A stretch of DNA of 64,000 bases, taken from positions 1 through 64,000 of the IMG/VR virus record IMGVR_UViG_3300009671_000009. The stretch is one strand, 5' to 3'. The position numbers were made by a program, and so were the translations under genes. The notes beneath the pieces are model-generated. The model worked only from the letters and a program-made list of their open reading frames with translations, did no database searches and was not told the DNA's origin. Positions within the stretch are counted from its first letter, which is position 1. Each line of letters starts with the position of its first letter. The DNA is from a virus (lineage: Duplodnaviria > Caudoviricetes). This document shows, piece after piece, positions 3,185 through 61,577 of this stretch.

Positions 3185-3444
3185 ATGCAGATTGCAAATA
3201 TCCAGGCATCAAAATTGCAGAAGGTATTATCGAGAAATTCGAAGACCAGATAGAACAGATTCGACTATATCTTCTAGCATGTACTACCATTGGATCCCGT
3301 CCATCTGTCAACGTTATGAAGTCTACCTACCCGTTGTTTGATTTCGATCTAGTTAACCAAAAACAACTAGGTAAGATATTCGTAGGCGGTGAATTGGTTG
3401 TATCTCACCAATGTAAAGAGATAGCTCGGTTCAAGCTTATATGA
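3181..3444 (+). CDS. hypothetical protein
   Basis: ORF, overlapping start/stop, RBS. Confidence 0.6.
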   Translation: MNADCKYPGIKIAEGIIEKFEDQIEQIRLYLLACTTIGSRPSVNVMKSTYPLFDFDLVNQKQLGKIFVGGELVVSHQCKEIARFKLI

Positions 3445-3485
3445 ACGACTTAGTGACCACTGACTAGGTAAACACCACCACAATA

Positions 3486-3926
3486 GTGGCAGAAAGGAGG
3501 GTTGGAGACTTTGTGCAACAAAAAATTATATATAAAAAGGGGGATGGTTGCAGCATGAAGTCTCCAAAGTTAGACTTGTTTGTGTTCAGTGGATGTGAGA
3601 ATTGTCCTCTGAATAAAAACGGCGGCCCTTGTGACCGCAAAACATTTGAGGTGGAAGTCCGCTTTCACACAGATCATTTCAAGGATGGTATCCACTTCAG
3701 GCTATGGCGTAAGACTGAAAAAGTACGTGGGGATGCCGTGATAGATAGCGGTATCATTTATTGCATCAAGGCTTTCTCCACTGAAGTGAAACACCTCTAT
3801 GATTACGTCTGGTTTAGTGAGCGGACTGTTAGTGTCAGGATGATGATGCCTAAGAAACCAAAGAAGAAAGCTATAACATCTTATGGGCAGCGTTTTCTAA
3901 GAAGCCAATCCTCAAGGAAGGAGTGA
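3486..3926 (+). CDS. hypothetical protein (start uncertain)
   Basis: 146-aa ORF; AGGAGG at about 3496 suggests a later GTG start. Confidence 0.55.
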   Translation: MAERRVGDFVQQKIIYKKGDGCSMKSPKLDLFVFSGCENCPLNKNGGPCDRKTFEVEVRFHTDHFKDGIHFRLWRKTEKVRGDAVIDSGIIYCIKAFSTEVKHLYDYVWFSERTVSVRMMMPKKPKKKAITSYGQRFLRSQSSRKE

Positions 3927-26125: not shown

Positions 26126-26201
26126 AGGGTTGTAGCCAAGCTGATAAGGCAGATGACTGTTAATCATCCATGCGCGGGTTCAACTCCCTCTAGGCCCACC
26201 A
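26126..26201 (+). tRNA. tRNA-Asn(GTT), mispaired acceptor stem (possibly pseudo or chimeric)
   Basis: GATGA-CTGTTAA-TCATC, T loop TTCAACT, CCA. Confidence 0.65.
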
Positions 26202-26226: not shown

Positions 26227-27654
26227 ATGATCAGAAGAGAGCCCTTACCTGAATCATGGGCACCCTTAATTCTTATGAAGGTGCCAGATGATGTTAAGTT
26301 TATAACACAAGAACTTAATAAAGCTGGATATGCGGCCTATCTTGTCGGAGGCGCAGTTCGAGACCTTCTGTTAGGCCTTGAGCCCAAAGACTGGGACGTG
26401 GCCACTAATGCCCCTGTTGATCTTATGTTAGAGATCTTTCTAGGATCTGAACTTGTAGGAGCCTCTTTTGGTGTAGTGTTATGGAAAGGTATCCAAATAG
26501 CCAAATTCCGTCAAGAAGAAGGCTATTCTGACAATAGACATCCTGATGAAGTTAGATTCGTAGGAACCCTTGAAGAAGATCTTGAACGTAGAGACTTCAC
26601 GATCAATGCTATTGCTATTGGACGAGATAGCTCTACAGATCCATTCTGTCAGGTTTTCCCAGAATCTGCACTTAAAGATCTTAATGCGGGTATAATCTCT
26701 GCTGTTGGGAATGCCAACGAAAGATTCAAAGAGGATGCCTTGAGGATGATGAGAGCAGCAAGGTTTACTGCTAAACTTAAAGGATTCGAGATTGACGATC
26801 GCACGTATTATGCAATGATATACAATGCAAAGCTTTTGCAGAATATATCCGCAGAACGAATCCAAGAAGAGCTAAATAAAACTCTTCTTTCACAGAATCC
26901 TGTGAAGGGTATTGATGTAATGAGGCATACGCATCTTTTAGAATATGTCATTCCTGAAATGCAGTCATGTTATGGTTTTCCTCAAAACGGATGGCACCGC
27001 TATGATGTGTTCACTCACATCTTAAAAGTATTGTCATATACCGCTGAAAGATCTGATTCTCTTACGATGAGACTAGCCGCTTTATTCCACGATATTGGAA
27101 AACCAGCAAGTCTTACTATTGATGAGGAAGGTAAGCGGCATTTCTATGGAAATCGATCTGATATCCCAACGCATTGGGATGCAGGAGCAAACATTACTTA
27201 TAAAAGGTTAAGCGAGCTTCGCTATGACAAACAAACTATTAAAGATGTTTGCACTCTTGTAAGAAATCATATGAATATAAATAAAGACGGCTTGTCACCA
27301 AAGGCTATTCGTAAACGACTTAACAAAGTTGGATATGATATGCTTATAAATCTTGTTGAACTCAAGCGAGCTGACTTTAAAGGAAGCGGAACTGAGAACG
27401 ATGCAGAAATCGATCAATTTATCGATAGTCTCTTAGCTAAAGTGAACCAAGTTACGGAATCAAATCCGCCAACCTCATTAAGACATTTGGCTGTCAATGG
27501 TGATGACATCATAGCAGCTATCGGTGTCAAACCTGGCAAGTGGATTGGTACTGTTCTATCAATAATGATGGATGAAGTATTAAACGATCCATCTAAAAAC
27601 ACAAGAGATTATCTGCTCCAACGAGCAGTTGAAATCTATAAATCAGGGGAGTAG
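26227..27654 (+). CDS. cca: CCA tRNA nucleotidyltransferase with HD domain
   Basis: VGGAVRD, DWDVAT, RRDFTINA, EDALRMMRA, ERI..EL, LFHDIGKP. Confidence 0.93.
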   Translation: MIRREPLPESWAPLILMKVPDDVKFITQELNKAGYAAYLVGGAVRDLLLGLEPKDWDVATNAPVDLMLEIFLGSELVGASFGVVLWKGIQIAKFRQEEGYSDNRHPDEVRFVGTLEEDLERRDFTINAIAIGRDSSTDPFCQVFPESALKDLNAGIISAVGNANERFKEDALRMMRAARFTAKLKGFEIDDRTYYAMIYNAKLLQNISAERIQEELNKTLLSQNPVKGIDVMRHTHLLEYVIPEMQSCYGFPQNGWHRYDVFTHILKVLSYTAERSDSLTMRLAALFHDIGKPASLTIDEEGKRHFYGNRSDIPTHWDAGANITYKRLSELRYDKQTIKDVCTLVRNHMNINKDGLSPKAIRKRLNKVGYDMLINLVELKRADFKGSGTENDAEIDQFIDSLLAKVNQVTESNPPTSLRHLAVNGDDIIAAIGVKPGKWIGTVLSIMMDEVLNDPSKNTRDYLLQRAVEIYKSGE

Positions 27655-27681: not shown

Positions 27682-27757
27682 TGACGGGTAGCTCAACAGG
27701 TGGAGCAATCGGCTGTTAACCGATAGGCTGGAGGTTAGATCCCTCTCATGTCAGCCA
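27682..27757 (+). tRNA. tRNA-Asn(GTT)
   Basis: ATCGG-CTGTTAA-CCGAT; G discriminator, CCA; atypical T loop TTAGATC. Confidence 0.8.
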
Positions 27758-28745: not shown

Positions 28746-29119
28746 TAGTACCAGACAGGTGAAAATTCTAGGCCAGAAGAAGTAATCCTTGCCGCACAAA
28801 ATCTGGTGGTGCGATTAGAAAGTGTTCCAACGGCTCCAGTAGTAGGCCATGGACAAACCTGGAGTGACGCAGTCTGGTACTATTAAAGAAGTTCTGTCGT
28901 TCAGCCCCAAGAAATCCTCGCATGCTATTGAGGATTTTAATTCTAGGAGGACGCGCTTGCCCTAGCATAAGGGCCATACGGCGTATGCAGATGCAAATCC
29001 TGCCAGAACTTCGTAGTAGAGAGACTTCTAGCTTAAAAAGTAAAGCGCCTGCTTTCAATAGCAGGAGATAGTGGTGGGGCCGCAGATGCTGCCGCAATCC
29101 ACTGTTGTCTCTCTATCTA
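28746..29119 (+). ncRNA. three tandem structured RNAs, the last two expanded tRNA-like folds
   Basis: closing stems 28746/28882, 28888/29012, 29014/29119; D-, anticodon- and T-arm-like elements with hairpin insertions. Confidence 0.55.
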
Positions 29120-29273
29120 TTATATTGCAAAAGATGAGTATATTAACTCTTAAAGATATGGTTAAAGATAACAAAAAAGCAAGGTGTAAAAAACTGCAAG
29201 AGAATACGGCGTTAGCCATGTAACAATTATAAGAATCAGAGACTATAAAGATTGGAAATATTTAAGTTAATAT

Positions 29274-29350
29274 GGCCCTATCGTCTAGTGGCTTAGGACA
29301 TATCTCTTCTCGGAGATAAGACTGAGATTCGAATTCTCATGGGGCTACCA
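29274..29350 (+). tRNA. tRNA-Glu(CTC)-like, 8-nt anticodon loop
   Basis: TATCT-CTTCTCGG-AGATA; Glu-type D arm; CCA. Confidence 0.75.
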
Positions 29351-29379
29351 AATATATCAAGAGGACAACATGGAGATTA

Positions 29380-29730
29380 ATGTTAATAATTGTCCTATCT
29401 ACCATTTATGTGACAAGTGTAACACCCGACCTTAGGGAAAACTATATGGGTATATATCCCCAAGGAGTGAATAATATGATATTTGTAATATTATATCAAA
29501 GTGGCGCTGTACTTGCTACAACCCTAGAGGTTCACCTTAATGAAGAAGACGAATTTGTATTATATGCCACTGATTCATCTACTGGCAATATTACTATAAT
29601 TAAATACCTTGGTAGCGACGAAAAAGAGGCTGAACAAATTGTATCAACTATTCACGAAAAAATAATAGAAAGATTCACCTGTTATACAGTAGACACATAT
29701 AATAAACCGATATTATTTGACTTCCGATAA
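29380..29730 (+). CDS. hypothetical protein (start probably about 29476)
   Basis: internal AAGGAG RBS. Confidence 0.55.
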   Translation: MLIIVLSTIYVTSVTPDLRENYMGIYPQGVNNMIFVILYQSGAVLATTLEVHLNEEDEFVLYATDSSTGNITIIKYLGSDEKEAEQIVSTIHEKIIERFTCYTVDTYNKPILFDFR

Positions 29731-29748
29731 AGAAAGGCAGACAATGCT

Positions 29749-30027
29749 ATGGATAAAAGTCTATATAACTTTTATATTAAAGTCGGCATGGCGAGTGGTA
29801 AGGAGAATGTCTGCGATGGAAAGAAACAGCTTACAAGTGAATCATATGCTAGAAAAGTGGCTCTAAAATCCACTTTACTATATAAGGCGCAAATGGTACA
29901 CTATCCATGCGTGTTCTGCGGAAATTGGCATGTTGGGCACAAAATGCCCTTCTCCAAAATGTTAATACTTGAGAAAAGAGGAGAAGAATTTCTAAAGCAG
30001 CACGGATTAAAACCTAAAACAAGTTAA
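29749..30027 (+). CDS. hypothetical zinc-binding protein
   Basis: YPCVFCGNWHVGH. Confidence 0.65.
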   Translation: MDKSLYNFYIKVGMASGKENVCDGKKQLTSESYARKVALKSTLLYKAQMVHYPCVFCGNWHVGHKMPFSKMLILEKRGEEFLKQHGLKPKTS

Positions 30028-30031
30028 TTAT

Positions 30032-30106
30032 GGCCCCATCGTCTAGTGGTTAGGACTCCTGGTTCTCAGTCAGGGTACGCGGGTTCGAATCCCACTGGGG
30101 CTACCA
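30032..30106 (+). tRNA. tRNA-Glu(CTC), canonical
   Basis: CCTGG-TTCTCAG-TCAGG; CCA. Confidence 0.92.
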
Positions 30107-30122
30107 AATAATTAGTTAATCT

Positions 30123-30199
30123 GGCCCCTTCGTCTAACAGAACTAAGGACGCCGCCCCTCAAGGCGGAGATGTGCGTTTGAGCCGTGCAGGGGCTACCA
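30123..30199 (+). tRNA. tRNA-Glu-like, 6-nt anticodon loop
   Basis: CCGCC-CCTCAA-GGCGG; CCA. Confidence 0.6.
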
Positions 30200-30221
30200 A
30201 TATACAAAAGGAGGCACAATA

Positions 30222-30851
30222 ATGGCAAAGCTAATTATGTTCAGTAGCTTAACACCTTTTGCAAGACAAGAAGCTAATAAAGTCATTAGGATGCTTCCTG
30301 AAATATCAGGGACAGGCTACTTGTCAATTGGTTATCTGCCATGTACAGATGAAGTCTACTTAGATCAATTAACAGAATCAGTTATGCTTAATTGTTACCT
30401 TGAGTCTCTAGGTATTGGAACAGTTAAACCTATCTTAGATATTGATGAAGACTTGGGCCTGTATGACGGTATCTTCCTTCCAGGAGGAAATACTTTCGAG
30501 ATACTAAGCTATCTTAAAAATAGCAAATTCTTTTTTAAATTGAAAACATTTGCTGATGATCAAAATAAAATACTTATTGGAAAATCAGCAGGTTCTATTA
30601 TTATGACTCCAACTATCAAAATAGCTCAGTTTGCTGACGACAACGAAAGCGAACTTGATGACCTTAGAGCTCTTGGTTTGGTTGACTTTGAAGTCAAACC
30701 TCATTGGAATCAGTGGAAAAATAAGAAACAAGTATTTCTCGACTATTCCTTACTTTCCAATTCATTAATTTACGGAATTCCAGAAGGTGAAGCAATTATT
30801 GTCAACAATGGCGATGTTCAGTTCACATCAGGAATAGTAAAAATAGCTTAG
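30222..30851 (+). CDS. peptidase S51 (dipeptidase E-like)
   Basis: GGNTF, GKSAGS, LGLVDF..PHW. Confidence 0.85.
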   Translation: MAKLIMFSSLTPFARQEANKVIRMLPEISGTGYLSIGYLPCTDEVYLDQLTESVMLNCYLESLGIGTVKPILDIDEDLGLYDGIFLPGGNTFEILSYLKNSKFFFKLKTFADDQNKILIGKSAGSIIMTPTIKIAQFADDNESELDDLRALGLVDFEVKPHWNQWKNKKQVFLDYSLLSNSLIYGIPEGEAIIVNNGDVQFTSGIVKIA

Positions 30852-30858
30852 CTAATAT

Positions 30859-30959
30859 GGGGGTTTCGTCTAGCGGAGACTATGTCTGCAGAGACAAGGT
30901 CATAGGACATTCACCTTCTCGGGTGAAAGATGTGAGTTCGAATCTTACAACCCCTACCA
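30859..30959 (+). tRNA. tRNA-Glu(CTC)-like with D-loop hairpin insertion and 8-nt loop
   Basis: TTCAC-CTTCTCGG-GTGAA; about 24-nt insert in the D loop; CCA. Confidence 0.7.
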
Positions 30960-31845: not shown

Positions 31846-32288
31846 TATATTATCTACGGAGTGCAAGTACGTAGAGAACGCCCGAACAAGGGGCAACAGT
31901 AGGGCAAACGTTCCACGTCAGTGCCCCTGAGCCACATGTGGCAATAGTCGGCGGGTAATCGCGGATGAGACGCTGCTACGTGGGACACCAAAAAACCATC
32001 CACGTAAGGCAAATGAGTTTCTGGGATGAACCCAGAATTATTTCATTATATGTGGGGTGGCTTTATGATCACTAAGATCAGGCAAGAAGCCTATGTTCCT
32101 ATGCGTCGTGCATTTAATGACTTTAAAATAGTCGTTGATAAACACACTACTGCTAGGAACATCCAACTCTTCGCAGCCTATAAAGCAGTCAGAATTGATT
32201 GCTACGAAGGATCGAAGACTAGGAACAAGAAAAAAACGGCATAATACGAGGGGTATTATTTGCCCCTCGCCCCACACAAATTTATGTA

Positions 32289-32317
32289 TTGACAAAAGTA
32301 ACAAAGCATGGTAGAAT
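32289..32317 (+). promoter_or_regulatory. sigma-A/70 promoter driving the Y-RNA-like array
   Basis: TTGACA-17-TAGAAT with extended TG, 7 nt before unit 1. Confidence 0.85.
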
Positions 32318-32324
32318 AGGAAAT

Positions 32325-32390
32325 GTGAGGCGTTTAAGAAGAGCTACTTCGATTTGGACGAAACACGGCTTTTCTAGCAATTTTCCTCAC
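32325..32390 (+). ncRNA. Y-RNA-like unit 1 (cargo: anticodon-like stem-loop, TTG)
   Basis: GTGAGGCG..TACTTCG...TTTTCCTCAC. Confidence 0.75.
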
Positions 32391-32408
32391 GTATAATAAG
32401 TATATAAG

Positions 32409-32552
32409 ATCAAATGAGGCGTTTTGTGGCGATACTTCGACTTTTTTAGCTAAAGAGGGGTCTGGGTTCGAATCCCAGCTTACAGGGAAACCTGCATGTG
32501 GTGTAACGGGAGCACGTAAAAGGACGCGTCACTACCTTTTTCCTCATTTGAT
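32409..32552 (+). ncRNA. Y-RNA-like unit 2 (YrlA-like permuted tRNA domain)
   Basis: scaffold plus T arm CTGGG-TTCGAAT-CCCAG, GAAA-capped acceptor, D arm. Confidence 0.8.
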
Positions 32553-32566
32553 TTAAATAAGATTAC

Positions 32567-32709
32567 AACTGAGGCGTTAGAAAGAGTTACTTCGCATTAG
32601 GAGCGCGGCTGTGGAGGTTCAAGTCCTTCTCCCCTGACCAATTTTATATCAGGGGATAGCTTAACTGGCAGAGCACGTAAACGTTACTTTTTCGCTATTT
32701 TCCTCAGTT
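32567..32709 (+). ncRNA. Y-RNA-like unit 3 (complete permuted tRNA with internal CCA, TAG loop)
   Basis: scaffold plus T arm, TCCCCTG-A-CCA, linker, CAGGGGA-TA-D arm. Confidence 0.85.
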
Positions 32710-32718
32710 AAGTTTAAC

Positions 32719-32813
32719 AAATGGGGCGCTTGATTGGGATACTTCGAGGATTATCAAATCTTCACCAGGGCGGCAGCCGACATACATGCACCTAGCCTAT
32801 ATTTACCCCATTT
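32719..32813 (+). ncRNA. Y-RNA-like unit 4
   Basis: compensatory GGGG/CCCC outer stem; CG-N11-TACTTCG. Confidence 0.75.
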
Positions 32814-32827
32814 AAATAAGCTCAATA

Positions 32828-32969
32828 ACAGTGAGGCGTCAGATAGAGTTACTTCGTTGCAGCCAAAAATTGCGATATAGTTTAACACTGGTTAAAACAC
32901 CAGGGAAACCTGGAGAATTCGGTTCAAGTCCGTCTTAATAGGAACTTTGTCGCCCATTTACCTCACTGT
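32828..32969 (+). ncRNA. Y-RNA-like unit 5 (tRNA permuted at the T-arm/acceptor junction)
   Basis: scaffold plus GTTGCA-G-CCA, TGCGATA-TA-D arm, GAAA-capped anticodon stem, T arm. Confidence 0.8.
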
Positions 32970-32976
32970 AAATTTT

Positions 32977-33108
32977 AAACTTGGGTGTCGGTTACATACC
33001 GACAGGGAAACTAGATAGGGACGTGCCGCCCCTAATAACCTACCATTACCCGTTCTACTGCTTCTAGTGCTGTAGGTAGACGCTGTGAAAGTCAGCAAGC
33101 CCAAGTTT
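32977..33108 (+). ncRNA. structured RNA inside the array lacking the Y-like scaffold
   Basis: AAACTTGGG/CCCAAGTTT closing stem, several internal hairpins. Confidence 0.55.
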
Positions 33109-33124
33109 TTATAAAGTTTAATAG

Positions 33125-33340
33125 TAAGCGAAGCGCTTGAAGGGGTTACTTCTTAATTCTAAAAGATGAATTGGTTTAGAAGGAAACTTCTATCTCAAGC
33201 ACGACGGGCGGGTGCCACCCCGATATAACGGCATGGCTGCGTGAGCCAAGAGCGCTTTCACCCTAATGGCCTCCTTTCCCAAGTTAAGGCCCCTTTCGAG
33301 GATAATGGGTGGGTTCCCTCTTCACTAATTTCTTCGCTTA
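33125..33340 (+). ncRNA. Y-RNA-like unit 6 (large non-tRNA cargo)
   Basis: compensatory GAAG/CTTC outer stem; CG-N11-TACTTC. Confidence 0.75.
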
Positions 33341-33386
33341 TTTAAGTTTCCCTTGATGGGTTTCCATTATAAGCATCACTCCTTCA

Positions 33387-33485
33387 TAACTAAACGAGGC
33401 GACAGTAAGGGATACTTCGCACAAGAACCTGGCCTAGAGCTTGGTAAAAAAACGAGCCTTTACAGCCATTTCCCTCGTTTAGTTA
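33387..33485 (+). ncRNA. Y-RNA-like unit 7
   Basis: TAACTAAACGAGG/CCTCGTTTAGTTA; GTAAGGG/CCTTTAC. Confidence 0.8.
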
Positions 33486-33548
33486 CGTAATCAAAGTGAG
33501 ATTTTACCTCGCTTTAAAATAAAAGTTTGTCCACTAAATTATACAACT

Positions 33549-33623
33549 AGAGAGGCGTCAGTCAGGGATACTTCGATAACTGTTAATTATCTAAAAAGGG
33601 CCTTGGCAAACTTTTTCCTCTCT
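33549..33623 (+). ncRNA. Y-RNA-like unit 8 (cargo: bare Asn anticodon stem-loop)
   Basis: scaffold plus GATAA-CTGTTAA-TTATC. Confidence 0.8.
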
Positions 33624-33637
33624 CGATAAAGTTCAAC

Positions 33638-33780
33638 AATCGAGGCGACAGAGAGCGTTACTTCGCCTGTTAAGCCGTAGGTCGTAGGTTCGAATCCTCC
33701 CGCCCCCGTCAAATTATATGGGGGTGTAGCTCAGTGGATAGAGCAACGTAAACGTACGTTCTCGACCTTTTCCCTCGATT
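33638..33780 (+). ncRNA. Y-RNA-like unit 9 (complete permuted tRNA, GTT loop)
   Basis: scaffold plus CTGTTAA loop, T arm, CGCCCCC/GGGGGTG acceptor, D arm. Confidence 0.85.
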
Positions 33781-33790
33781 AAAAAAATTC

Positions 33791-33931
33791 AGATGAGGCG
33801 ACAGTAAGGGATACTTCAAAGGAAATCAGCGTGTCGTGGGTTCAAGTCCCACTCCCCTGACTAATCAGGGGGTAGCTCAGTTGGCAGAGCAACCGACAAT
33901 AAAGAGGCCTTTACAACCATTTTCCTCATCT
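33791..33931 (+). ncRNA. Y-RNA-like unit 10 (YrlA-like permuted tRNA domain)
   Basis: scaffold plus GTGGG-TTCAAGT-CCCAC, TCCCCTG/CAGGGGG, D arm. Confidence 0.85.
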
Positions 33932-33948: not shown

Positions 33949-33990
33949 AACGGGAGTGGTCTATCTAAAGGTAGATTGCTCACGTTTTTT
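33949..33990 (+). terminator. hairpin plus T-run between the array and the Ro60 gene (terminator or attenuator)
   Basis: AACG..GAGTGGTCTATC/GGTAGATTGCTC..CGTT then TTTT. Confidence 0.5.
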
Positions 33991-34016: not shown

Positions 34017-35519
34017 ATGGCAAGAGTAAAACAAATGTTTGGCACTCCGCAAATTCCTGTTGCGGACACCACGAATCGTGATGGGTATGATGCTTACACC
34101 CGAAGCATCTACGAGCAATTCGTTCAAACTCTGTTCTGCAATACACTGGGTAATACCTACTATGCAGACAGCAAAGAAATGCTCAAAGAAGCCAGCAAAG
34201 TGCACCAAGACATGCTGAAGGAAGACAAGTTCTTCTTTGCTGACGCGCTACCCGTAGCACGCCAAGAAGGGTGCATGAAACTTCAACCTGTCTATGCTCT
34301 GTCTTTGTTAGCTGCAACCGACCCAGGCTTGTTTGAAAAAACATTCCCTGGAGTGGTATTGATCCCATCCGATCTCCAAGACTTCATGACTATCCTTGAT
34401 AGTGCTGGTCGTGGACAAGGTGGCCGCGCTGTAAAGCGAACAGTTGCCAACTGGATGAATGAAAAGATGTCCGAATACTGGGCGATTAAATACGACGGTG
34501 ACGCTCGTGGCTATTCTCTCGGTGATTTGGTTCAGACCATTCATCCGAAACCTAAGAACAGCTTTGTCTCTGGTCTTTATGGTTACTTAATCGGCTCAGA
34601 AAAGGTTAATCTTGCAGAGTACAAGCAGTTAACTGCTTATCAGGCTCTGAAGAAGACGACCGATCCGAAGGAACAGATTCGTCTGGTGCGCGAAGGCAGA
34701 CTTCCCCACGAAGTCGTGACTGGCGTAACCAAAATGAGTCCCGACCTTTGGGACGCTCTTGTCCAAGATATGCCTGTCTTTGCTACCTTACGTAACCTGA
34801 ATGCCCTGGATAGGGTTGGTGTCCTCGACAAAAATCGTAAGATTATCGAAGAGAGACTCACCAATCCTGAAATACTGGCTAAGTCCAAGATTCTGCCGTT
34901 CAGGTTCCTAAATGCCTTCGACAACGTATCCAAGGCGTGGGTCAAAGATGCTCTACGGTCGGCGGTTGAAGCTACCTTCAATAACCTACCTGAGATCTCT
35001 GGCAAAACTGCGATCTTCTTGGACGTCTCTGGGTCGATGAGCGGAGAATATTTGAAGATCGGTTCGGTCTTCGCAATAGCTCTCTACAAAAAGACTCGTG
35101 GCAACGGTTTGTTCTGGTTGTTCGATACTCGTGTATTTGATGGACAACCTTCATTGCATGATTCGATCTTAACCCAAGCAAACAAAATCCACACCAGAGG
35201 CGGCACCAATACAGGTGCTCCGATGCGAAAATTATGGCAAGACCGTGAAAAAGTAGACAACATCATCATGATTACTGATGAACAGCAAAACACTGGGAAT
35301 CCGTTTTATGGTGAGTTAGCTGAATATCGGAGACACATTAACCCGAATGTAAAAACATTCATTATTGATATCTCTGGTTATCGGCAAGCCATGGTTCCTC
35401 AAGGCGATCCGAATACTTTCTACATCTACGGATGGTCGGATCAAGTCCTCAACTATATTTCAATGGCCTCCAAAGGCTTTGGAACTATCGTTGATGCGAT
35501 CAAAGCCAAAAGAAAGTAA
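34017..35519 (+). CDS. rsr: Ro60/TROVE domain RNA-binding protein (Rsr) with C-terminal vWA
   Basis: TNRDGYDAY, NTYY, MP..ATLRNLN, ILPFRFL.A, vWA DVSGSM and ITDEQ, GWSD. Confidence 0.93.
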   Translation: MARVKQMFGTPQIPVADTTNRDGYDAYTRSIYEQFVQTLFCNTLGNTYYADSKEMLKEASKVHQDMLKEDKFFFADALPVARQEGCMKLQPVYALSLLAATDPGLFEKTFPGVVLIPSDLQDFMTILDSAGRGQGGRAVKRTVANWMNEKMSEYWAIKYDGDARGYSLGDLVQTIHPKPKNSFVSGLYGYLIGSEKVNLAEYKQLTAYQALKKTTDPKEQIRLVREGRLPHEVVTGVTKMSPDLWDALVQDMPVFATLRNLNALDRVGVLDKNRKIIEERLTNPEILAKSKILPFRFLNAFDNVSKAWVKDALRSAVEATFNNLPEISGKTAIFLDVSGSMSGEYLKIGSVFAIALYKKTRGNGLFWLFDTRVFDGQPSLHDSILTQANKIHTRGGTNTGAPMRKLWQDREKVDNIIMITDEQQNTGNPFYGELAEYRRHINPNVKTFIIDISGYRQAMVPQGDPNTFYIYGWSDQVLNYISMASKGFGTIVDAIKAKRK

Positions 35520-35564: not shown

Positions 35565-35894
35565 GTGAGAACATTGGATAGTAATTGGATATATGAAATG
35601 CAAAACAATCTAGTTCACAAGTGCTATCATTGTTATGAACAGCATAAAAGTGAAACTAAAATGACACTAAAATCGCAACATAAAGATAAAGTTATAGCCC
35701 AATGCTGTTATCTTACTTATCTGTGTAAACATTTTTACCACATTGATAATATAACTGATCAAGCTTTCTATGATGATTGTTTAGATCACAACAGGCTAGG
35801 AACGTGCACTGCGTTTGTTAAAAAGAAACCTCCTGTACCGTTTAAGATAAAGTTACTTCGATGGTGGAAAAGGAAATTTGGCAATGTTCACTAA
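35565..35894 (+). CDS. hypothetical protein
   Basis: ORF rich in Cys and His. Confidence 0.5.
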   Translation: MRTLDSNWIYEMQNNLVHKCYHCYEQHKSETKMTLKSQHKDKVIAQCCYLTYLCKHFYHIDNITDQAFYDDCLDHNRLGTCTAFVKKKPPVPFKIKLLRWWKRKFGNVH

Positions 35895-36687
35895 ACTTAT
35901 AGATAAATATCTCAACGACATCTTTACTCCAGAGCAGCAGAAGATAGACCATGTGTCAAAATTTGTAGACTTTATCTATAGGCAACCTCAAGGAAACGCC
36001 GAGGTGTCTAGAAAGGTTAAAGGAAGCCAATATAACCAAGCGCGTCTATCTGTTGGATTCTGCCACAATACTTTAGAAAGTCTATTTAGAGTAATCAAGT
36101 TTCTCTCGGGTATCGAGGGAGTAAACTTAGATCCTATGTTGGAATTTTTACTTCAATCAGATCAATCACAAATCCAACTGATAGTTTTTGGTCTAGAGCT
36201 GGGAGCCTCTGCCAGCAAGACACGATATAAAGTTCACATTCAGTATTACAAACATCCTCGAATCGTGGATGTTATATTGAACAATCCCTGCTCTAATCCT
36301 AAATCGTTTAATTTCTTACCGTTTGGAGAAGCCACTGTGGGATTTGATTTATTTCTGGATGGAAGAACAGAATATCGGGTATATGTTTCATTCGATACTC
36401 CGCAACGGTATAAACTTTTATTCGGAAGATTCTTTGAGCCACATATTGTAGATGCCCTATATCGTTCGGAAAACGCATGGCTTGCCTGGAAAAACAGCAA
36501 CTCTGAAACATTTGTTTATTTCCTGGATGATAAGTTAGATCCAATAATTGATAGTTTACAATTTGAGGATCTAGACCAGAATATGTTGGACTTTAATGGA
36601 ATTCGTCCTTATATTTTTGGTACAACTCTTTCTGACTTACAAACTAGGAAACTTAACGAATATAATATTTATTTTTCATTAGCTTAA
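35884..36687 (+). CDS. possible LynF/TruF/PatF-like (ABBA-fold) prenyltransferase
   Basis: VFGLEL....SKTRYKVHI and VGFDLFLDGRTEYRVY resemble remembered family motifs. Confidence 0.45.
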   Translation: MFTKLIDKYLNDIFTPEQQKIDHVSKFVDFIYRQPQGNAEVSRKVKGSQYNQARLSVGFCHNTLESLFRVIKFLSGIEGVNLDPMLEFLLQSDQSQIQLIVFGLELGASASKTRYKVHIQYYKHPRIVDVILNNPCSNPKSFNFLPFGEATVGFDLFLDGRTEYRVYVSFDTPQRYKLLFGRFFEPHIVDALYRSENAWLAWKNSNSETFVYFLDDKLDPIIDSLQFEDLDQNMLDFNGIRPYIFGTTLSDLQTRKLNEYNIYFSLA

Positions 36688-37198: not shown

Positions 37199-37615
37199 AT
37201 GGCATATCCATACAAACGCCTCAAAATAAAAGGTAAATGCATTGATAGGCATAGGCTAGTGATGGAAGAAAAACTAGGTCGAAAATTAGAATCATGGGAA
37301 ATAGTCCATCACAAAGACGAAGATAAATCCAATGATGAAGCAAACAATTTGGAACTAAGAACAAGATCGACCCATATAATTGATCATCTACCAAAACCTA
37401 TAGTTATGACTGAAGAAGTAAAACAGAAAATAAGTATTTCCAAACAAGGTTCCAAAAATCCAAGAGCAATTCTCACCGAAGAACAAGTCATTAGAATTAA
37501 AAAAGATCTTGGAGAAGGAATGGGCGTTAGATCATTAGCAAGAACGTTAAACATAGACCATAAAATAATTTCCGATATTAAAACAGGCAAAACATGGAAA
37601 CATGTTGTATTATGA
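37199..37615 (+). CDS. HNH endonuclease with C-terminal HTH
   Basis: HRLVME..LGR.L...EIVHHKDEDKSND..NNLEL. Confidence 0.88.
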   Translation: MAYPYKRLKIKGKCIDRHRLVMEEKLGRKLESWEIVHHKDEDKSNDEANNLELRTRSTHIIDHLPKPIVMTEEVKQKISISKQGSKNPRAILTEEQVIRIKKDLGEGMGVRSLARTLNIDHKIISDIKTGKTWKHVVL

Positions 37616-39737: not shown

Positions 39738-39998
39738 ATGGATCCCATAACTCTATTGGTCATGGCAGGAGTTGCCTTTGGAGTCAACGTAGTATGTGAT
39801 AAGGTTGACTTTTTAAGGAATATTACTCACAGTCGAGTAATGAGTGCTTCCACCGAAGAGCTAATCAAACAACTCAAGGGAGTACAAACTAACCCCGAAT
39901 TATTTACAGCCATGGTAAGTAGCAAAGAAGGAAGAACACTAGATGAAACTACTTGTGGGTTTAACCCCCCAAAGGACAGCATTAACACTCAGCTTTGA
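39738..39998 (+). CDS. hypothetical protein
   Basis: AGGAGAGG RBS. Confidence 0.55.
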   Translation: MDPITLLVMAGVAFGVNVVCDKVDFLRNITHSRVMSASTEELIKQLKGVQTNPELFTAMVSSKEGRTLDETTCGFNPPKDSINTQL

Positions 39999-42900
39999 TT
40001 ACAATCCTGCCATCATTACTCGGCTCAAGAACCGAGTTTATGGGCGTGCATATGATGGAGATCTAAAATGCTGGGTGTTGCCATTAGCAAGCTTTGACGA
40101 TCTTGTTCAAGAGTTTGGAGCAATGATTGAATTAACTGTGCCATTTAAAGAAATAGTGGAGGCTATAGATAGTATTGCCCCAGTAGTTGGTACTGTTGAT
40201 ATGCAAGCAGCTCAAGTTTTAAAACTAAAACCCTATGACTATCAAATTATAGGAGGAGCGGCGTTTCTTCCTAATATTAAATGTGGAATACTGGCAGATG
40301 TGCCAGGGTTAGGTAAGTGCCTAACGCCTGACTCTCGCATTTACATGAATGGTGCTAATACTACACTTCAGCAAATATGGGATAGCTATGTACGAGAATT
40401 GTCTTTTGACGGAGAAGGATATTGGTCTTCTCCGTCAAAAGACCTGTATGTTCCATCGTTGGACAATGGCAAGTTAATATATTCTAAGGTTAAACGAATA
40501 TATCGACAATGGATAGATGCACCCATCAAAGTCATAAAACTCACAAATGGTTCTGTTTTGAGAGCAACATTAACTGAAAAATTATTCGATGGCTATAGCT
40601 GGAGCAATAATTTGCAACCTGGAGATTGTGTAGCTATTCCAAATGTATTGCCTGATTTCAAACACAATATTAATGCGCAGTCGCAAATCGTGAAACTAAT
40701 TGCATGGCAACTAGCTGAGGGACACGAAGCTTCCCATGGCCACAGTTTCAGGATATATCAAGATAATATTGATGTATTGAACCATATAGCAAGTTTATTA
40801 TCCTATTTGAATATTCAATTTGATATAAAGCATGAACCTGGGAAATGTCCATATATAAGAGGCCGTAGTAAAGAATATCATAATATAATGACTAGTTATG
40901 ACTACGCCTGGGGAGCCAAGTCTAAAGACAAAAGAATTCCTAGCTTTATTTTTAATTTGCCTGACAAACTGCTACGGACTTTTCTTTCGGTCTTTTTTGA
41001 CGCAGAATCAAATGTTAATGTGTCAACTAGCAACATGGAAATAACAAGTGCTTCTTCTGAAATAATATTTGGTATTAAACAACTCTTGCTTCGTTTTGGC
41101 ATTAAAATGAATACTGCAGAATACATGAAATGTGCCACTAACGGAACAAGAATTAAAAGAAAATATTACAGAGGATATGTCTCTGGAGAAGACCTTGTGA
41201 GATTTTATCATACTATAGGCTATTGCTACGAATATAAAATGTCTGCATTGTCAAAGGTAGCCAATAAAAAACATAATAGCAACATATATGTATATCCAAT
41301 TAAAAAAGCATTTGAGAACTTCACAGATTCTGTGAAGATTCCTCCAAGATATTTCAAGTACAGGAAAGATTACTTGACTACAAATAAACTACCTAGTATA
41401 GATGGCTTAAGAAAGATGTCAAAAGGTTTTGATTATGTATTGTCTGGAGAAGCTGAATCAGACTATAAGAAGCTAAAGCCTAGTAAATGGACAGTCAAGA
41501 CCTTGGAATCTTTCAAAAACGCAGATTACTTACAAATTGCCAACGTAAAAGATAAAATAAATCATTTTTTGCACAGTGACGTAGCATATGTACGAATAGA
41601 CTCAATAAGCTATGAACAATATTCTGGCTGGGTATATGATTTGGAAATAGAAAATACTCACAACTTTATTGCAGAAGGAATGTGTGTTCATAATACAATT
41701 CAGACATTTTTGGGCTTTGCTTCACTGTGTGAGCGAGGCTTAGCCCAAAAGTGCCTTGTCTTTTGCAAAGCAAACCTGAAATCGCAGTGGTTGTCAGAGT
41801 TAGAGAAATTTACTTCTTACAAAGGAATCAAAATCAAAGGAACACCAGAACAAAGGCTTGCTTTGTACGAGGAGGCAGCAAAACCTGAATATCAGTTTAT
41901 ATTTGTTAACTACGAATTCCTGATTCATGACAAAAAATATGTTAAAGAGTGCGAACGCAAGACCAAAGAAAATGAAAAGCTAAAAGCGGCAGGTAAGAAA
42001 ACTAAAAGAGCCGCGAAGGGCTTTGACGATTTCGAGAATCTAGAATATCTAATGAGGCAGTGTCAAGTCCTTGTAATGGACGAGGCCCAAAAAGTAAAGA
42101 ATGATTCATCTCAAATTCATAAGAATCTGTTTAAAATGGTATATGGCACGAAAACATATCCATCGATACCGCCAGAATACCGCTGGCTACTAACAGGAAC
42201 CCCAATTGAGAATGAACCTGAAGATATTTATAACTTATTTAAGTTTGTAAACCAGTCCGTACTTGGACATAATCCAAATACCTTCAAATACCGTTATTAT
42301 GAAGGAAGGTACCACGAAAAAGTAAGAAAAGACATGCTTAAAGACCTCAGTATGAGGATCGCACCGTATATGTTACGGAGAACCCAAGAAAATGTCAAAC
42401 GAGCGTTTCCTAAAGTCCGTATTGATGAAATGCTTCTAGACATGACAAATGATCAAATTATCTTACATGATATTCTTAAAGAAATTACTAGGGATCTTAT
42501 AGATGGTGTAAAACACCCTGAAATAGGAAACGATGATTATTCACCAATCGGGATATTTAGTTTGTTGCTAAGAGTTGCAGATAATCCTGATTTGCTATTT
42601 ACATCTGAAAGTGACCTGGCTAGAAGTCTAGCTAAGAAACATTTAAAAACTCCTGGGCATGAATGCCCTAAAATAGAATGGATATGCGATTACTTAGAAG
42701 CACGCAAACAATTTGAACCTGATGCAAAGACCATTATATTTACCAGAAGTGATGATATGGCACATCTTACACGCGAATCATTACTTCAAGGTACTTACAA
42801 AGACAACGATATCATCTTGTTTGTAGGAGGCATGTCCGAGAAACAGCGGGATACAGCAAAGGCAAGATTTTGGAAAGACGGAAAGATCTTTATATCAACT

Positions 42901-43182
42901 GATGCTGGTTCGGAAGGGCTTAACCTCCAATGTGCCAACGTGGAAATCAACATTGATCTTCCGCCTACTCCGTCAAGACTTGCACAGAGAATTGGCCGCA
43001 TTAAACGAGATCAATCTGAGTTTTCACATGTTAGGATTATTAATCTTATTTCAAAAGATTCTATAGATGAGCGAATCCTCAAAATAATCTATGATAAACA
43101 ATCTATTATTGACAGTGTCATTGAAGGTAATATTGCAGACATCAATCTTACGCAAAGCGTGCTTCTGGAACTACTGTCGTAA
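39943..43182 (+). CDS. SNF2-family helicase containing an intein
   Basis: LADVPGLGK|T, DEAQ, LLTGTP.EN, STDAGSEGLNLQ, QRIGRI.R. Confidence 0.92.
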   Translation: MKLLVGLTPQRTALTLSFDYNPAIITRLKNRVYGRAYDGDLKCWVLPLASFDDLVQEFGAMIELTVPFKEIVEAIDSIAPVVGTVDMQAAQVLKLKPYDYQIIGGAAFLPNIKCGILADVPGLGKCLTPDSRIYMNGANTTLQQIWDSYVRELSFDGEGYWSSPSKDLYVPSLDNGKLIYSKVKRIYRQWIDAPIKVIKLTNGSVLRATLTEKLFDGYSWSNNLQPGDCVAIPNVLPDFKHNINAQSQIVKLIAWQLAEGHEASHGHSFRIYQDNIDVLNHIASLLSYLNIQFDIKHEPGKCPYIRGRSKEYHNIMTSYDYAWGAKSKDKRIPSFIFNLPDKLLRTFLSVFFDAESNVNVSTSNMEITSASSEIIFGIKQLLLRFGIKMNTAEYMKCATNGTRIKRKYYRGYVSGEDLVRFYHTIGYCYEYKMSALSKVANKKHNSNIYVYPIKKAFENFTDSVKIPPRYFKYRKDYLTTNKLPSIDGLRKMSKGFDYVLSGEAESDYKKLKPSKWTVKTLESFKNADYLQIANVKDKINHFLHSDVAYVRIDSISYEQYSGWVYDLEIENTHNFIAEGMCVHNTIQTFLGFASLCERGLAQKCLVFCKANLKSQWLSELEKFTSYKGIKIKGTPEQRLALYEEAAKPEYQFIFVNYEFLIHDKKYVKECERKTKENEKLKAAGKKTKRAAKGFDDFENLEYLMRQCQVLVMDEAQKVKNDSSQIHKNLFKMVYGTKTYPSIPPEYRWLLTGTPIENEPEDIYNLFKFVNQSVLGHNPNTFKYRYYEGRYHEKVRKDMLKDLSMRIAPYMLRRTQENVKRAFPKVRIDEMLLDMTNDQIILHDILKEITRDLIDGVKHPEIGNDDYSPIGIFSLLLRVADNPDLLFTSESDLARSLAKKHLKTPGHECPKIEWICDYLEARKQFEPDAKTIIFTRSDDMAHLTRESLLQGTYKDNDIILFVGGMSEKQRDTAKARFWKDGKIFISTDAGSEGLNLQCANVEINIDLPPTPSRLAQRIGRIKRDQSEFSHVRIINLISKDSIDERILKIIYDKQSIIDSVIEGNIADINLTQSVLLELLS
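40318..41694 (+). mobile_element. intein with LAGLIDADG homing endonuclease (459 aa)
   Basis: CLTPDS...VYDLEI..THNFIAEG.CVHN|T inserted in Walker A. Confidence 0.92.
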
Positions 43183-60468: not shown

Positions 60469-61577
60469 TTGTTGAAATTGTCAGAATGAAATCTATGGAA
60501 AAGATTCCTACTGCTGATACTCTTTTAATTACTCAAGTAAAAGGCTGGTATTGTATCCTCAAAGATGATGGTACAATTAAGGATGGGGATCTTGCAGTAT
60601 ACATACCTATCGATTCAATCGTCCCTAACGAATTAGCTGACAAGTACAATCTCGAATACCTTAAAAATGGCAGTCGAGTTCGTACAGTCAAGCTCAGAGG
60701 CTACATAAGTCAGGGACTTGTTCTTCCTATTGATTGTCTCCCCGATGGAGACTGGAAAGAGGGCGACGATGTAGCTGAAGTTCTTGGTATTAAGAAATGG
60801 GAACCACCCAGTGCTGCTTGGCAACAGCCAGCAGCTAAGGGTAAGCGCACACGGAGCATGAAGAACAATCCCAATCCAGACTTTCGTAAATACACAGATA
60901 TTGACAATATCAAAAACTATCCAGGTATTTTCAATGAAGGTGACGAAGTTGTAGTCACAGAAAAGATACACGGTACGAATTTCAGAGTAGCGTACATAAA
61001 AAGATATACCAAAGGGGTATGGAGCAAGATTATATCTTGGCTCCTAGGAAAATACCAATTCCTAGTAGGTTCACACAATGTTCAGATCGGAGAAGGTCGT
61101 GAATGTGCATTTTATGGCGCTGACGTGTATAGCAAAATTGCTAAGCGGTATAAGCTGTACGACGTCATGAAAGAAAACCCTGGCTGTGAACTCTTCGGTG
61201 AAATCTACGGAGTTGACAGCGATACAGGGGCTAAGATCCAAGACCTTACATACGGAAAACCCGAACTTGACGTTGTATTTTTTGATCTTATCAAGGATGG
61301 ACAGTATGTGCCATTCGATGAGTTCATGAACTTCTGCAATCGATACAGCTTACCCACTGTGCCACTGCTATTCAGAGGGATTTTGACCCAAGGTATCATA
61401 GAAGCCTGTACTGCAGGCGAATCAGTGCTGGCCAACATTAATGGCGCTAAACAAATTCGTGAGGGAGCTGTTGTTAAGGATCCACTGGAGACCAGTCATC
61501 CAAGACTGGGTCGTAAGATACTTAAATCAATTAGCGAAGATTACCTATTACGTAAAGACGGTACTGAAAATCACTGA
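60456..61577 (+). CDS. RNA ligase, DRB0094/Rnl2-like family
   Basis: N-terminal OB fold (IP.AD, LRG.ISQGL); EKIHGTN, GEIYG, FFD, REGAVVK, KSISEDYL. Confidence 0.9.
   Translation: MSKLIVEIVRMKSMEKIPTADTLLITQVKGWYCILKDDGTIKDGDLAVYIPIDSIVPNELADKYNLEYLKNGSRVRTVKLRGYISQGLVLPIDCLPDGDWKEGDDVAEVLGIKKWEPPSAAWQQPAAKGKRTRSMKNNPNPDFRKYTDIDNIKNYPGIFNEGDEVVVTEKIHGTNFRVAYIKRYTKGVWSKIISWLLGKYQFLVGSHNVQIGEGRECAFYGADVYSKIAKRYKLYDVMKENPGCELFGEIYGVDSDTGAKIQDLTYGKPELDVVFFDLIKDGQYVPFDEFMNFCNRYSLPTVPLLFRGILTQGIIEACTAGESVLANINGAKQIREGAVVKDPLETSHPRLGRKILKSISEDYLLRKDGTENH

Follow-up and report, generated by a model that had tools for sequence, protein, structure and literature searches.

A short Y-RNA-like unit carrying a tRNA-Asn-type anticodon stem-loop in the Ro60-associated array of a jumbo phage

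Introduction

The virus record IMGVR_UViG_3300009671_000009 represents a jumbo phage genome of 224,466 bp with direct terminal repeats, the first 64 kb of which (64,000 nt) form the window analysed here. Ten tandem Y-RNA-like units are located at positions 32325-33929 on the plus strand of this window, and the gene for a Ro60 (Rsr) ortholog follows on the same strand, with 88 nt separating the end of the array (33929) from the Ro60 start codon (34017). Two of the units, 1 and 8, are short, and the question raised by the locus is what these short units display at their tips and which partner, if any, reads it. The original prediction, made from the nucleotide sequence and its open reading frames, held that they present only an anticodon stem-loop, of the Asn (GTT) type in unit 8 and possibly of the Gln (TTG) type in unit 1, and that they serve as decoy substrates for an enzyme of the host which acts on the anticodon.

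The hairpins of units 8 and 1

The sole cargo of unit 8 is, exactly as predicted, the hairpin GATAA-CTGTTAA-TTATC, with its strands at 33575-33579 and 33587-33591 and its loop at 33580-33586. It has the attributes of an anticodon stem-loop, namely a 5-bp stem, a 7-nt loop, C32, U33 and A37. The same loop is found, as had also been noted, in both tRNA-Asn genes of the window (at 26157 in the gene starting at 26126, and at 27713 in that starting at 27682), and again in unit 9 (at 33667). The unit 8 hairpin and the anticodon arm of the tRNA-Asn at 26126 share 15 of 17 bases, and the difference constitutes a single compensatory base pair. In a comparison of 4,003 hairpins of this 5-bp/7-nt geometry, taken from both strands of the whole 224-kb genome, unit 8 gave the best match to any of 23 phage tRNA anticodon arms when the tRNA genes themselves were excluded, the next best sharing 14/17 bases. 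The proposal that an Asn-type anticodon stem-loop is all that unit 8 displays on its conserved scaffold is borne out. The origin of the hairpin as a copy of that in unit 9 was considered and rejected, as the two stems are unrelated.

The CTGTTAA heptamer is not rare, with 11 copies on the plus strand of the window and 25 and 23 copies on the two strands of the genome. Only four genomic sites present it within a 5-bp/7-nt hairpin, namely the two tRNA-Asn genes, unit 8 and a site at 159849. The latter, outside the window, is a CATCG...TGATG hairpin which belongs to neither a tRNA nor a Y unit and possibly arose by chance. Because the heptamer alone is common, the weight of the resemblance is carried by the hairpin as such, by its location at the unit tip and by the match of its stem. 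It could be argued that both hairpins arose by accident in short units which have decayed to pseudogenes, given 48 copies of the heptamer in an A+T-rich genome and a unit 8 hairpin that on its own has almost no folding energy. The handles of both short units are, however, intact and folding, the 15/17 match ranks first among approximately 4,000 hairpins, and the same loop occurs at the same place in independent phages. As such, a chance resemblance is considered extremely improbable. The hairpins of units 1 and 8 furthermore both belong to the minimum-free-energy folds of their whole units.

The predicted hairpin of unit 1, TTCG-ATTTGGA-CGAA (TTCG: 32348-32351; ATTTGGA: 32352-32358; CGAA: 32359-32362), can likewise be read in the sequence and is recovered in the fold. 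Its stem comprises 4 bp only, all of which are derived from the conserved TTCG handle, position 32 is an A, and no near-identical arm was found among the tRNAs of the phage. Mimicry of tRNA-Gln was considered and discarded, as the loop differs at three positions from that of the phage tRNA-Gln (CTTTGAC), has A32, and corresponds to loops of 6-7 nt in its homologs. The Gln part of the original prediction, with its 4-bp stem borrowed from the handle, can thus be set aside. The ATTTGGA loop is one base removed from that of the full-size unit 3 (ATTAGGA), and its type recurs as ATTTTGG or ATTTGG, with loops of 7 or 6 nt, in Thermoanaerobacterium loci. Unit 1 is a putative short Y RNA, its loop belongs to a different recurrent type (ATTT(T)GG), and it is no credible Gln mimic. 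The YrlB/Yrn2 type of short Y RNA is a long hairpin that has no tRNA-like domain and is capped by a small, pyrimidine-rich loop. Units 1 and 8 take this hairpin form, and pyrimidines make up four of the seven loop bases in unit 8 (CUGUUAA) and three of seven in unit 1 (AUUUGGA). Units 2, 3, 9 and 10 have a T arm, a closed acceptor stem and a D arm, none of which occurs in units 1 and 8.

The Y RNA scaffold and the Ro60 association

The variable middle of each unit is flanked by conserved sequence, with GAGGCG, approximately ten bases and TACTTCG on the 5' side and, on the 3' side, a part that ends with a T-rich run and CCTC. Because the Ro60 gene adjoins the array, the handle motif of the array is found nowhere else in the 224-kb genome, and sub-threshold matches to the Rfam YrlA family (RF02553) were obtained for units 10 (34.1 bits; E-value: 4.6e-5) and 9 (32.6 bits; E-value: 1.2e-4), the array is identified as a predicted set of Y-RNA-like genes, members of the Ro60-binding class of small RNAs (Chen et al. 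2014; PMC4201824). No unit reaches the gathering score of 69 bits, the best scores amounting to about half of it, and units 1 and 8 give no RF02553 match. The YUAY motif, as TTAC, ATAC or CTAC, is present in 10/10 units, with its TAC pairing with GTA or GTG on the 3' strand. The Ro-binding motif GNCGAAN0-1G is represented by a variant, GGCG(A/T)(C/T)AG, matching at six to seven of eight positions, and the stems are present and covary. Units 1 and 8 may as such be regarded as short Y RNAs, candidate partner RNAs of the phage Ro60 protein, and unit 8 is very probably a Y RNA which displays an anticodon arm.

Transcription would begin at the promoter of the array, and processing of the transcript would release the individual RNAs, which Ro60 would bind and stabilise through the handle, that is, the terminal stem, the GGCG, the second covarying stem and the YUAY motif. 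In the short units the tRNA-like body is replaced by the hairpin which forms the anticodon arm in full-size units, and the tip of this hairpin would be presented as a protein-binding surface. In another viral contig (L123; IMGVR_UViG_3300017991_000122), tRNA-Phe, tRNA-His and tRNA-Asn genes are each followed by a Y unit, with Ro60 coming last, on the reverse strand at approximately 3250-3900. This alternation suggests that Y RNAs may be released by tRNA-processing enzymes.

Short second Y RNAs have been described next to Rsr/Ro60 and a tRNA-like Y RNA, namely YrlB in Salmonella Typhimurium and Mycobacterium smegmatis and Yrn2 in Deinococcus radiodurans (PMC4201824). Like units 1 and 8, these are long hairpins with a small tip loop and neither T nor D arms, in which the Ro-binding motif (a variant in units 1 and 8) lies close to the 5' end (PMC4201824). 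The comparison was made by description rather than by sequence; no likeness to an anticodon arm has been described for YrlB or Yrn2, unlike unit 8, and the two short units considered here furthermore stand within a ten-unit phage array. Among the phages, a close parallel is Thermus phage phiLo, in which two Y-like RNAs (Yrl1 and Yrl2) likewise lie just upstream of a phage Ro60 and for which an anti-defence role has been proposed (PMC12135203). It differs in encoding two such RNAs rather than ten, in having no reported tRNA or anticodon mimicry, and in its proposed target, the capture of host PNPase (PMC12135203).

An anticodon arm in the full-size units

A unit finder applied to the gathered loci returned 80 units, of which 65 are distinct, and the arm was assessed by a fixed-register count, by explicit pair extraction and by a whole-structure count. 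The full-size layout consists of TACTTCG, one base, seven bases, the complement of the first base and CG or CC, followed by a tRNA-type variable loop, T arm, closed acceptor stem and D arm. A register with a 7-nt loop pairs in 35 of the 65 distinct units, compared to only 2-17 for the other loop sizes between 4 and 10 nt. Among 25 aligned full-size units related to those of the array, pair 31:39 is A-U in thirteen and C-G in twelve, while bases 42-43, after the hairpin, pair in seven Watson-Crick combinations with bases 27-28, which come after the D arm and nucleotide 26. The stem of the arm is a 5-bp composite. Over the whole structure 94.8% of cells are paired, compared to 42-47% with slid partners, 20 pairs change on both sides, and the same helices are independently recovered by RNAalifold. 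The loop is 7 nt long in all 25 units, with a pyrimidine at position 32 in 24/25 and U33 and a purine at position 37 in 25/25, while the triplet at positions 34-36 takes the forms GTT, TTT, TCT, CTT, CCT, GAT, TCC, GTC, ATC, TGT, TTG, ACG and TAG. The loop pattern which the original prediction had expected across homologous arrays thus gives a split outcome: it holds for the unit 8 type and for the 25 full-size units, and breaks down for the unit 1 type with its loops of 6-7 nt.

Because the covariation reveals a full anticodon arm beside the T arm, acceptor stem and D arm, the full-size units are predicted to be complete, circularly permuted tRNA mimics with a closed acceptor end. The chain is predicted to be open within the 5' strand of the anticodon stem, at the junction of nucleotides 28 and 29, which is also where the Ro60-binding stem would branch off. 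The handle, YUAY motif, T arm, closed acceptor and D arm are common to YrlA (RF02553; Chen et al. 2014; PMC4201824) and units 2, 3, 9 and 10. The hairpin described here occupies the place of the 'V' stem-loop of YrlA, interpreted by Chen et al. as a variable arm (PMC4201824), and the structure of Salmonella YrlA is stated to lack 'the anticodon loop' (bioRxiv 10.1101/312249), whereas covariation shows a full anticodon arm in the present clade. Literature searches returned no description of a Y RNA with an anticodon arm. The possibility that the full-size units are working split tRNAs was rejected, since RNAs with a large stem emerging from the anticodon stem are unlikely to function in translation; it has no bearing on the short units.

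One full-size Y unit (L004 3814-3884, corresponding to G406 37277-37347) is called as tRNA-Arg(acg) by ARAGORN, with its hairpin read as the anticodon arm, and gene finders may mis-annotate such Y units as tRNAs. The loop of this unit (TTACGGA) is also that of the genuine tRNA-Arg(ACG) of the jumbo phage.

Relatives of the array and recurrence of the short units

A near-identity DNA search with the array and Ro60 gene against 50,697 phage records, and a single-protein locus search in IMG/VR, returned nothing, and the known phage Ro60 proteins share at most 26% identity with that of the window. Relatives were obtained with an alignment query and handle patterns, which yielded two viral contigs, four bacterial loci, 78 metagenome loci and one further viral contig. 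A search of 401 Bacillota genomes with a 13-base handle pattern produced matches that were for the most part due to chance, at about the control level. The window Ro60 shares 55-66% identity with TROVE proteins of Bacillota (Thermoanaerobacter, Thermoanaerobacterium, Paenibacillus and Cohnella), and its closest relatives are 83%, 66% and 64% identical. No other locus was found with more than four units, compared to ten in the jumbo phage.

A short unit of the 58.8-kb viral contig G406, which is estimated to be complete, encodes a Ro60 with 57% identity and has tRNA-Tyr and tRNA-Asn as its only true tRNAs, carries the hairpin TTCGA-CTGTTAA-CCGAT, the stem of which is not copied from the tRNA-Asn of that contig, the loop alone being held in common. 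A third example, TTCGC-CTGTTAA-GCGGA, occurs in the last of four units of another viral contig, L130 (G+C content: 67%; Ro60 identity: ~32%). That the same loop is retained in unit 8, G406 and L130 despite differing stems argues for a constraint on the loop sequence. CTGTTAA is a recurrent loop across the Bacillota-type Y RNA clade, occurring in bacteria and other phages, and because it belongs to the clade as a whole, the Asn enrichment loses much of the force with which it had been taken to point to one specific nuclease of the host.

These observations also bear on whether the tip matters at all. In a generic short Y RNA the tip would only cap the stem, units 1 and 8 would occupy or gate Ro60 as YrlB and Yrn2 do, and the anticodon likeness would be inherited from a tRNA-derived ancestor, possibly because a gene resembling unit 9 or unit 3 lost its T, acceptor and D arms. 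Such an origin predicts the near identity of the unit 1 and unit 3 loops and the identity of those of units 8 and 9. All characterised bacteria possess a Y RNA of the short hairpin kind (PMC4201824), and the loops of short units elsewhere vary widely in type and size, including the 6-7 nt of the unit 1 type. However, the stem of unit 8 matches the tRNA-Asn at 26126 and not unit 9, while CTGTTAA remains unchanged where Ro60 identity has fallen to 32-57% and the stems have been replaced, suggesting selection on the loop sequence. We rank the generic explanation second and consider it rather unlikely.

Streptomyces phage BRock (KX925554; L129 1880-2360) contains four tandem Y-like units (GATGCG...TTACTTC), unannotated in its record, between a tRNA cluster and a Ro-like gene, two of which give sub-threshold YrlA matches. 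None of the four has an anticodon arm, despite the TACTTC motif, and the arm therefore appears to be limited to the clade of the jumbo phage array.

Evolution of the anticodon triplet

In eight independent closest pairs of units, positions 34-36 differ at 11/24 sites, compared to 64/1,009 sites elsewhere in the RNA (Fisher's exact test: p = 1.7e-7), while positions 32, 33, 37 and 38 differ at 2/32. The adjacent Ro60 genes differ at 3-57% of their 4-fold degenerate sites across the eight pairs. All three triplet positions are replaced in two pairs with synonymous divergence of 19% and 27% (probability ~0.007 and ~0.02, respectively), and the triplet is unchanged in pairs at 44-57%. We read the triplet as one that may be free, or episodically switched, within a fixed frame. 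Positive selection was considered and found not to be justified, the summed excess over the 4-fold expectation being only modest.

RNA-repair context and candidate roles of unit 8

Related bacterial loci show the order of a divergent WYL regulator, one or more Y RNAs, Ro60, RlaP, Hen1 and Pnkp (for example L071 1129-7479). Parts of this order are evident in at least 23 of 83 loci, many of the loci being incomplete. RlaP, Hen1 and Pnkp mend tRNAs which ribotoxins have cut in the anticodon loop (PMC4411300; PMC12776372), and the operon order would tie this Ro60 clade to the repair of ribotoxin damage. Phage Ro60 has already been grouped with RNA-repair functions in comparative work (PMC7824862). 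The jumbo phage itself encodes 24 tRNAs (ARAGORN), and its CCA-adding enzyme, RNA ligase, AAA_33 kinase and RlaP together resemble a tRNA repair toolkit; no RtcB or tRNA-guanine transglycosylase was found in the phage genome. Several odd tRNA-Glu-like genes are located at 29022-30956, and a tRNA with the anticodon CTA, labelled Pyl by ARAGORN and a possible amber suppressor, is found at 87599-87673 of the genome, outside the window.

Phage answers to anticodon nucleases include the repair of PrrC-cut tRNA-Lys by T4 Pnkp and Rnl1, phage-encoded tRNAs and repair by RlaP, Hen1 and Pnkp (PMC7824862; PMC4411300; PMC12776372). The gene company is the same here, with tRNAs, a CCA-adding enzyme, RNA ligase, kinase, RlaP and Ro60, and this context, like that of the bacterial repair operons, is compatible with a decoy. 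Those systems, however, replace or mend tRNAs once cut, and an RNA decoy presented by Ro60 exists as a hypothesis only, YrlA having been floated by Hughes et al. (2020) as a competitive inhibitor of an anticodon nuclease (PMC7790460).

The loop of unit 8 is likely to be read by a protein. Unit 8 would act as a competitive mimic, binding an enzyme that requires only the anticodon stem-loop, either an anticodon nuclease or an enzyme which modifies the anticodon loop, and would form part of the tRNA protection and repair equipment of the phage. We rank this first because a bare stem-loop suffices for anticodon nucleases such as colicin E5 and PrrC and for tRNA-guanine transglycosylase, while most other tRNA enzymes need the tRNA body. 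There is a precedent in the operator of the thrS mRNA, a bare hairpin which imitates the anticodon arm of one tRNA and competes with that tRNA for ThrRS. The operator is a cis-regulatory element of an mRNA, however, whereas a trans-acting RNA on the Ro60 ring is proposed for unit 8. That unit 8 is specifically a decoy of the tRNA-Asn anticodon loop is put forward tentatively, as a leading candidate that we would stop short of calling probable, and the explanation as a whole deserves the same caution.

Several observations weigh against such a decoy. Salmonella YrlA is not cut by an SOS-induced anticodon nuclease and its fragments were not seen (PMC7790460), and the only mechanism demonstrated for bacterial and phage Y RNAs is the tethering of PNPase (PMC4201824; PMC12135203). 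The stem of unit 8 contains four A-U pairs and is marginally stable alone. The other short units in related loci are mostly not anticodon-like, with loops of 5-9 nt lacking U33, and the further CTGTTAA short units, that of L130 among them, were found with a pattern requiring CTGTTAA, so that they demonstrate existence and not frequency. The 11 triplet changes compare with ~6.6 expected, roughly the rate of 4-fold degenerate sites, and a near-neutral triplet is also what a partner reading shape only would leave.

A shape reader is the premise of an alternative in which the arm is a tether, docking an enzyme of RNA repair or tRNA processing (RlaP, a Pnkp/Hen1-type ligase or PNPase) beside a Ro60 that holds damaged RNA. 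The conserved geometry around a free triplet fits recognition of shape over sequence, and the arrangement parallels the Ro60-Y RNA-PNPase machine, the sole Y RNA mechanism shown by experiment (PMC4201824; phage phiLo, PMC12135203), while RlaP, Hen1 and Pnkp are encoded in the operons of related loci. It nevertheless leaves unexplained the retention of the exact CTGTTAA loop in short units of very distant phages and the copying of the stem of one particular tRNA by unit 8, and a bare stem-loop offers little to enzymes which read the tRNA body. For these reasons a tether is deemed unlikely.

The loop may alternatively be meant for cutting, the Y RNA serving as a bait or sentinel for an incoming anticodon nuclease, with the cut RNA (carrying a 2',3'-cyclic phosphate) signalling damage or freeing Ro60. 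This would parallel the activation of RtcR by nicked tRNAs, nicked or permuted tRNAs being RtcR ligands (PMC10159003). The divergent WYL-domain regulator beside the bacterial Y RNA-Ro60-repair operons and the replacement of all three anticodon positions in the two close pairs (4-fold divergence: 19-27%) would be in keeping with such a signal, but no regulator adjoins the phage array and the failure to observe fragments of Salmonella YrlA (PMC7790460) speaks against it. A sentinel is thus regarded as improbable.

The competitive mimicry favoured for unit 8 can be extended to a wider reading, in which the Ro60-Y RNA systems of Bacillota and their phages would carry a programmable anticodon display, as bait or decoy for anticodon-specific ribotoxins, inside an RNA-repair module. 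The display would consist of the full mimic opened at 28/29 or of the arm alone, close relatives would differ by the block exchange of the triplet within an unchanged loop frame, and the jumbo phage would have expanded it to a panel of ten RNAs that includes arm-only tRNA-Asn decoys. This generalisation is speculative and, on present evidence, doubtful.

Features of the array and its surroundings

The features discussed are collected in Table 1. Within the array, element X has a 9-bp terminal stem and a fold better than that of shuffled sequences (z = -2.45), and gave no Rfam match. Three further features lie near the array: a G+C-rich structured stretch directly 3' of tRNA-Tyr (31852-31995; z = -2.3), matching no Rfam family at threshold; an open reading frame after the Ro60 gene (35878-36687) which matches DUF5838 (E-value: 4e-10); and a SNF2-family helicase gene (39943-43182) split by an intein with a LAGLIDADG endonuclease domain.

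Table 1. Predicted features of the array, its surroundings and the associated tRNA and RNA-repair genes (window positions unless marked as genome positions).
Feature	Position	Strand	Description
tRNA-Asn(GTT)	26126..26201	+	Anticodon arm GATGA-CTGTTAA-TCATC (26152-26168)
CCA-adding enzyme	26227..27654	+	Between the two tRNA-Asn genes
tRNA-Asn(GTT), second, divergent	27682..27757	+	Anticodon arm ATCGG-CTGTTAA-CCGAT
Sigma-70-like promoter of array	32289..32317	+	TTGACA, 17 nt, TAGAAT, with TG ahead of second hexamer; 11/12 consensus matches, best in region
Unit 1	32325..32390	+	Short Y-RNA-like gene; apical hairpin TTCG-ATTTGGA-CGAA; whole-unit fold z = -2.75
Unit 2	32414..32547	+	YrlA-type (T arm, GAAA-capped acceptor, D arm); without clear anticodon hairpin
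Unit 3	32569..32707	+	Predicted full permuted tRNA mimic; anticodon arm CGC-ATTAGGA-GCG and pairs 27-28:42-43 (CG/CG)
Unit 4	32721..32811	+	Scaffold with non-tRNA cargo
Unit 5	32831..32966	+	Scaffold carrying an unpermuted tRNA-like cargo; GAAA caps its anticodon stem; tRNA model 21.4 bits
Element X	32978..33108	+	131-nt structured RNA-like stretch inside array, without GGCG...TAC handle
Unit 6	33125..33340	+	Divergent handle (AGCG for GGCG); ~175-nt non-tRNA cargo
Unit 7	33394..33478	+	Scaffold with short non-tRNA cargo
Unit 8	33549..33623	+	Short Y-RNA-like gene; sole cargo hairpin GATAA-CTGTTAA-TTATC (33575-33591)
Unit 9	33640..33778	+	Predicted full permuted tRNA mimic; anticodon arm CGC-CTGTTAA-GCC and pairs 27-28:42-43 (AC/GT); YrlA 32.6 bits
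Unit 10	33793..33929	+	Classical YrlA-type, without anticodon hairpin; YrlA 34.1 bits; resembles unit 1 of phage BRock
Terminator-like hairpin and T run	33954..33990	+	Between array and Ro60 gene
Ro60/Rsr ortholog	34017..35519	+	TROVE and vWA domains, 500 aa; PF05731 (E-value: 1e-16); PF25045
RNA ligase domain (PF09414)	60942..61529	+	In 374-aa frame
AAA_33 kinase and RlaP nucleotidyltransferase	genome 91695-92129 and 99298-99990		

Implications for Ro60-Y RNA systems

With regard to the role of the tRNA-like part of bacterial Y RNAs, the mimicry in the present clade goes as far as a genuine anticodon arm, at odds with the published model of YrlA. The reduction of the mimicry to this arm in the short units restricts the candidate partners to enzymes which recognise an anticodon stem-loop, and unit 8, as a predicted RNA of 75 nt, is open to direct tests. 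Should a decoy or bait function prove correct, Ro60-Y RNA particles would represent a third way of countering anticodon nucleases, beside tRNA repair and phage-encoded tRNAs, and this would explain why Ro60 often accompanies RNA-repair genes and phage tRNA clusters.

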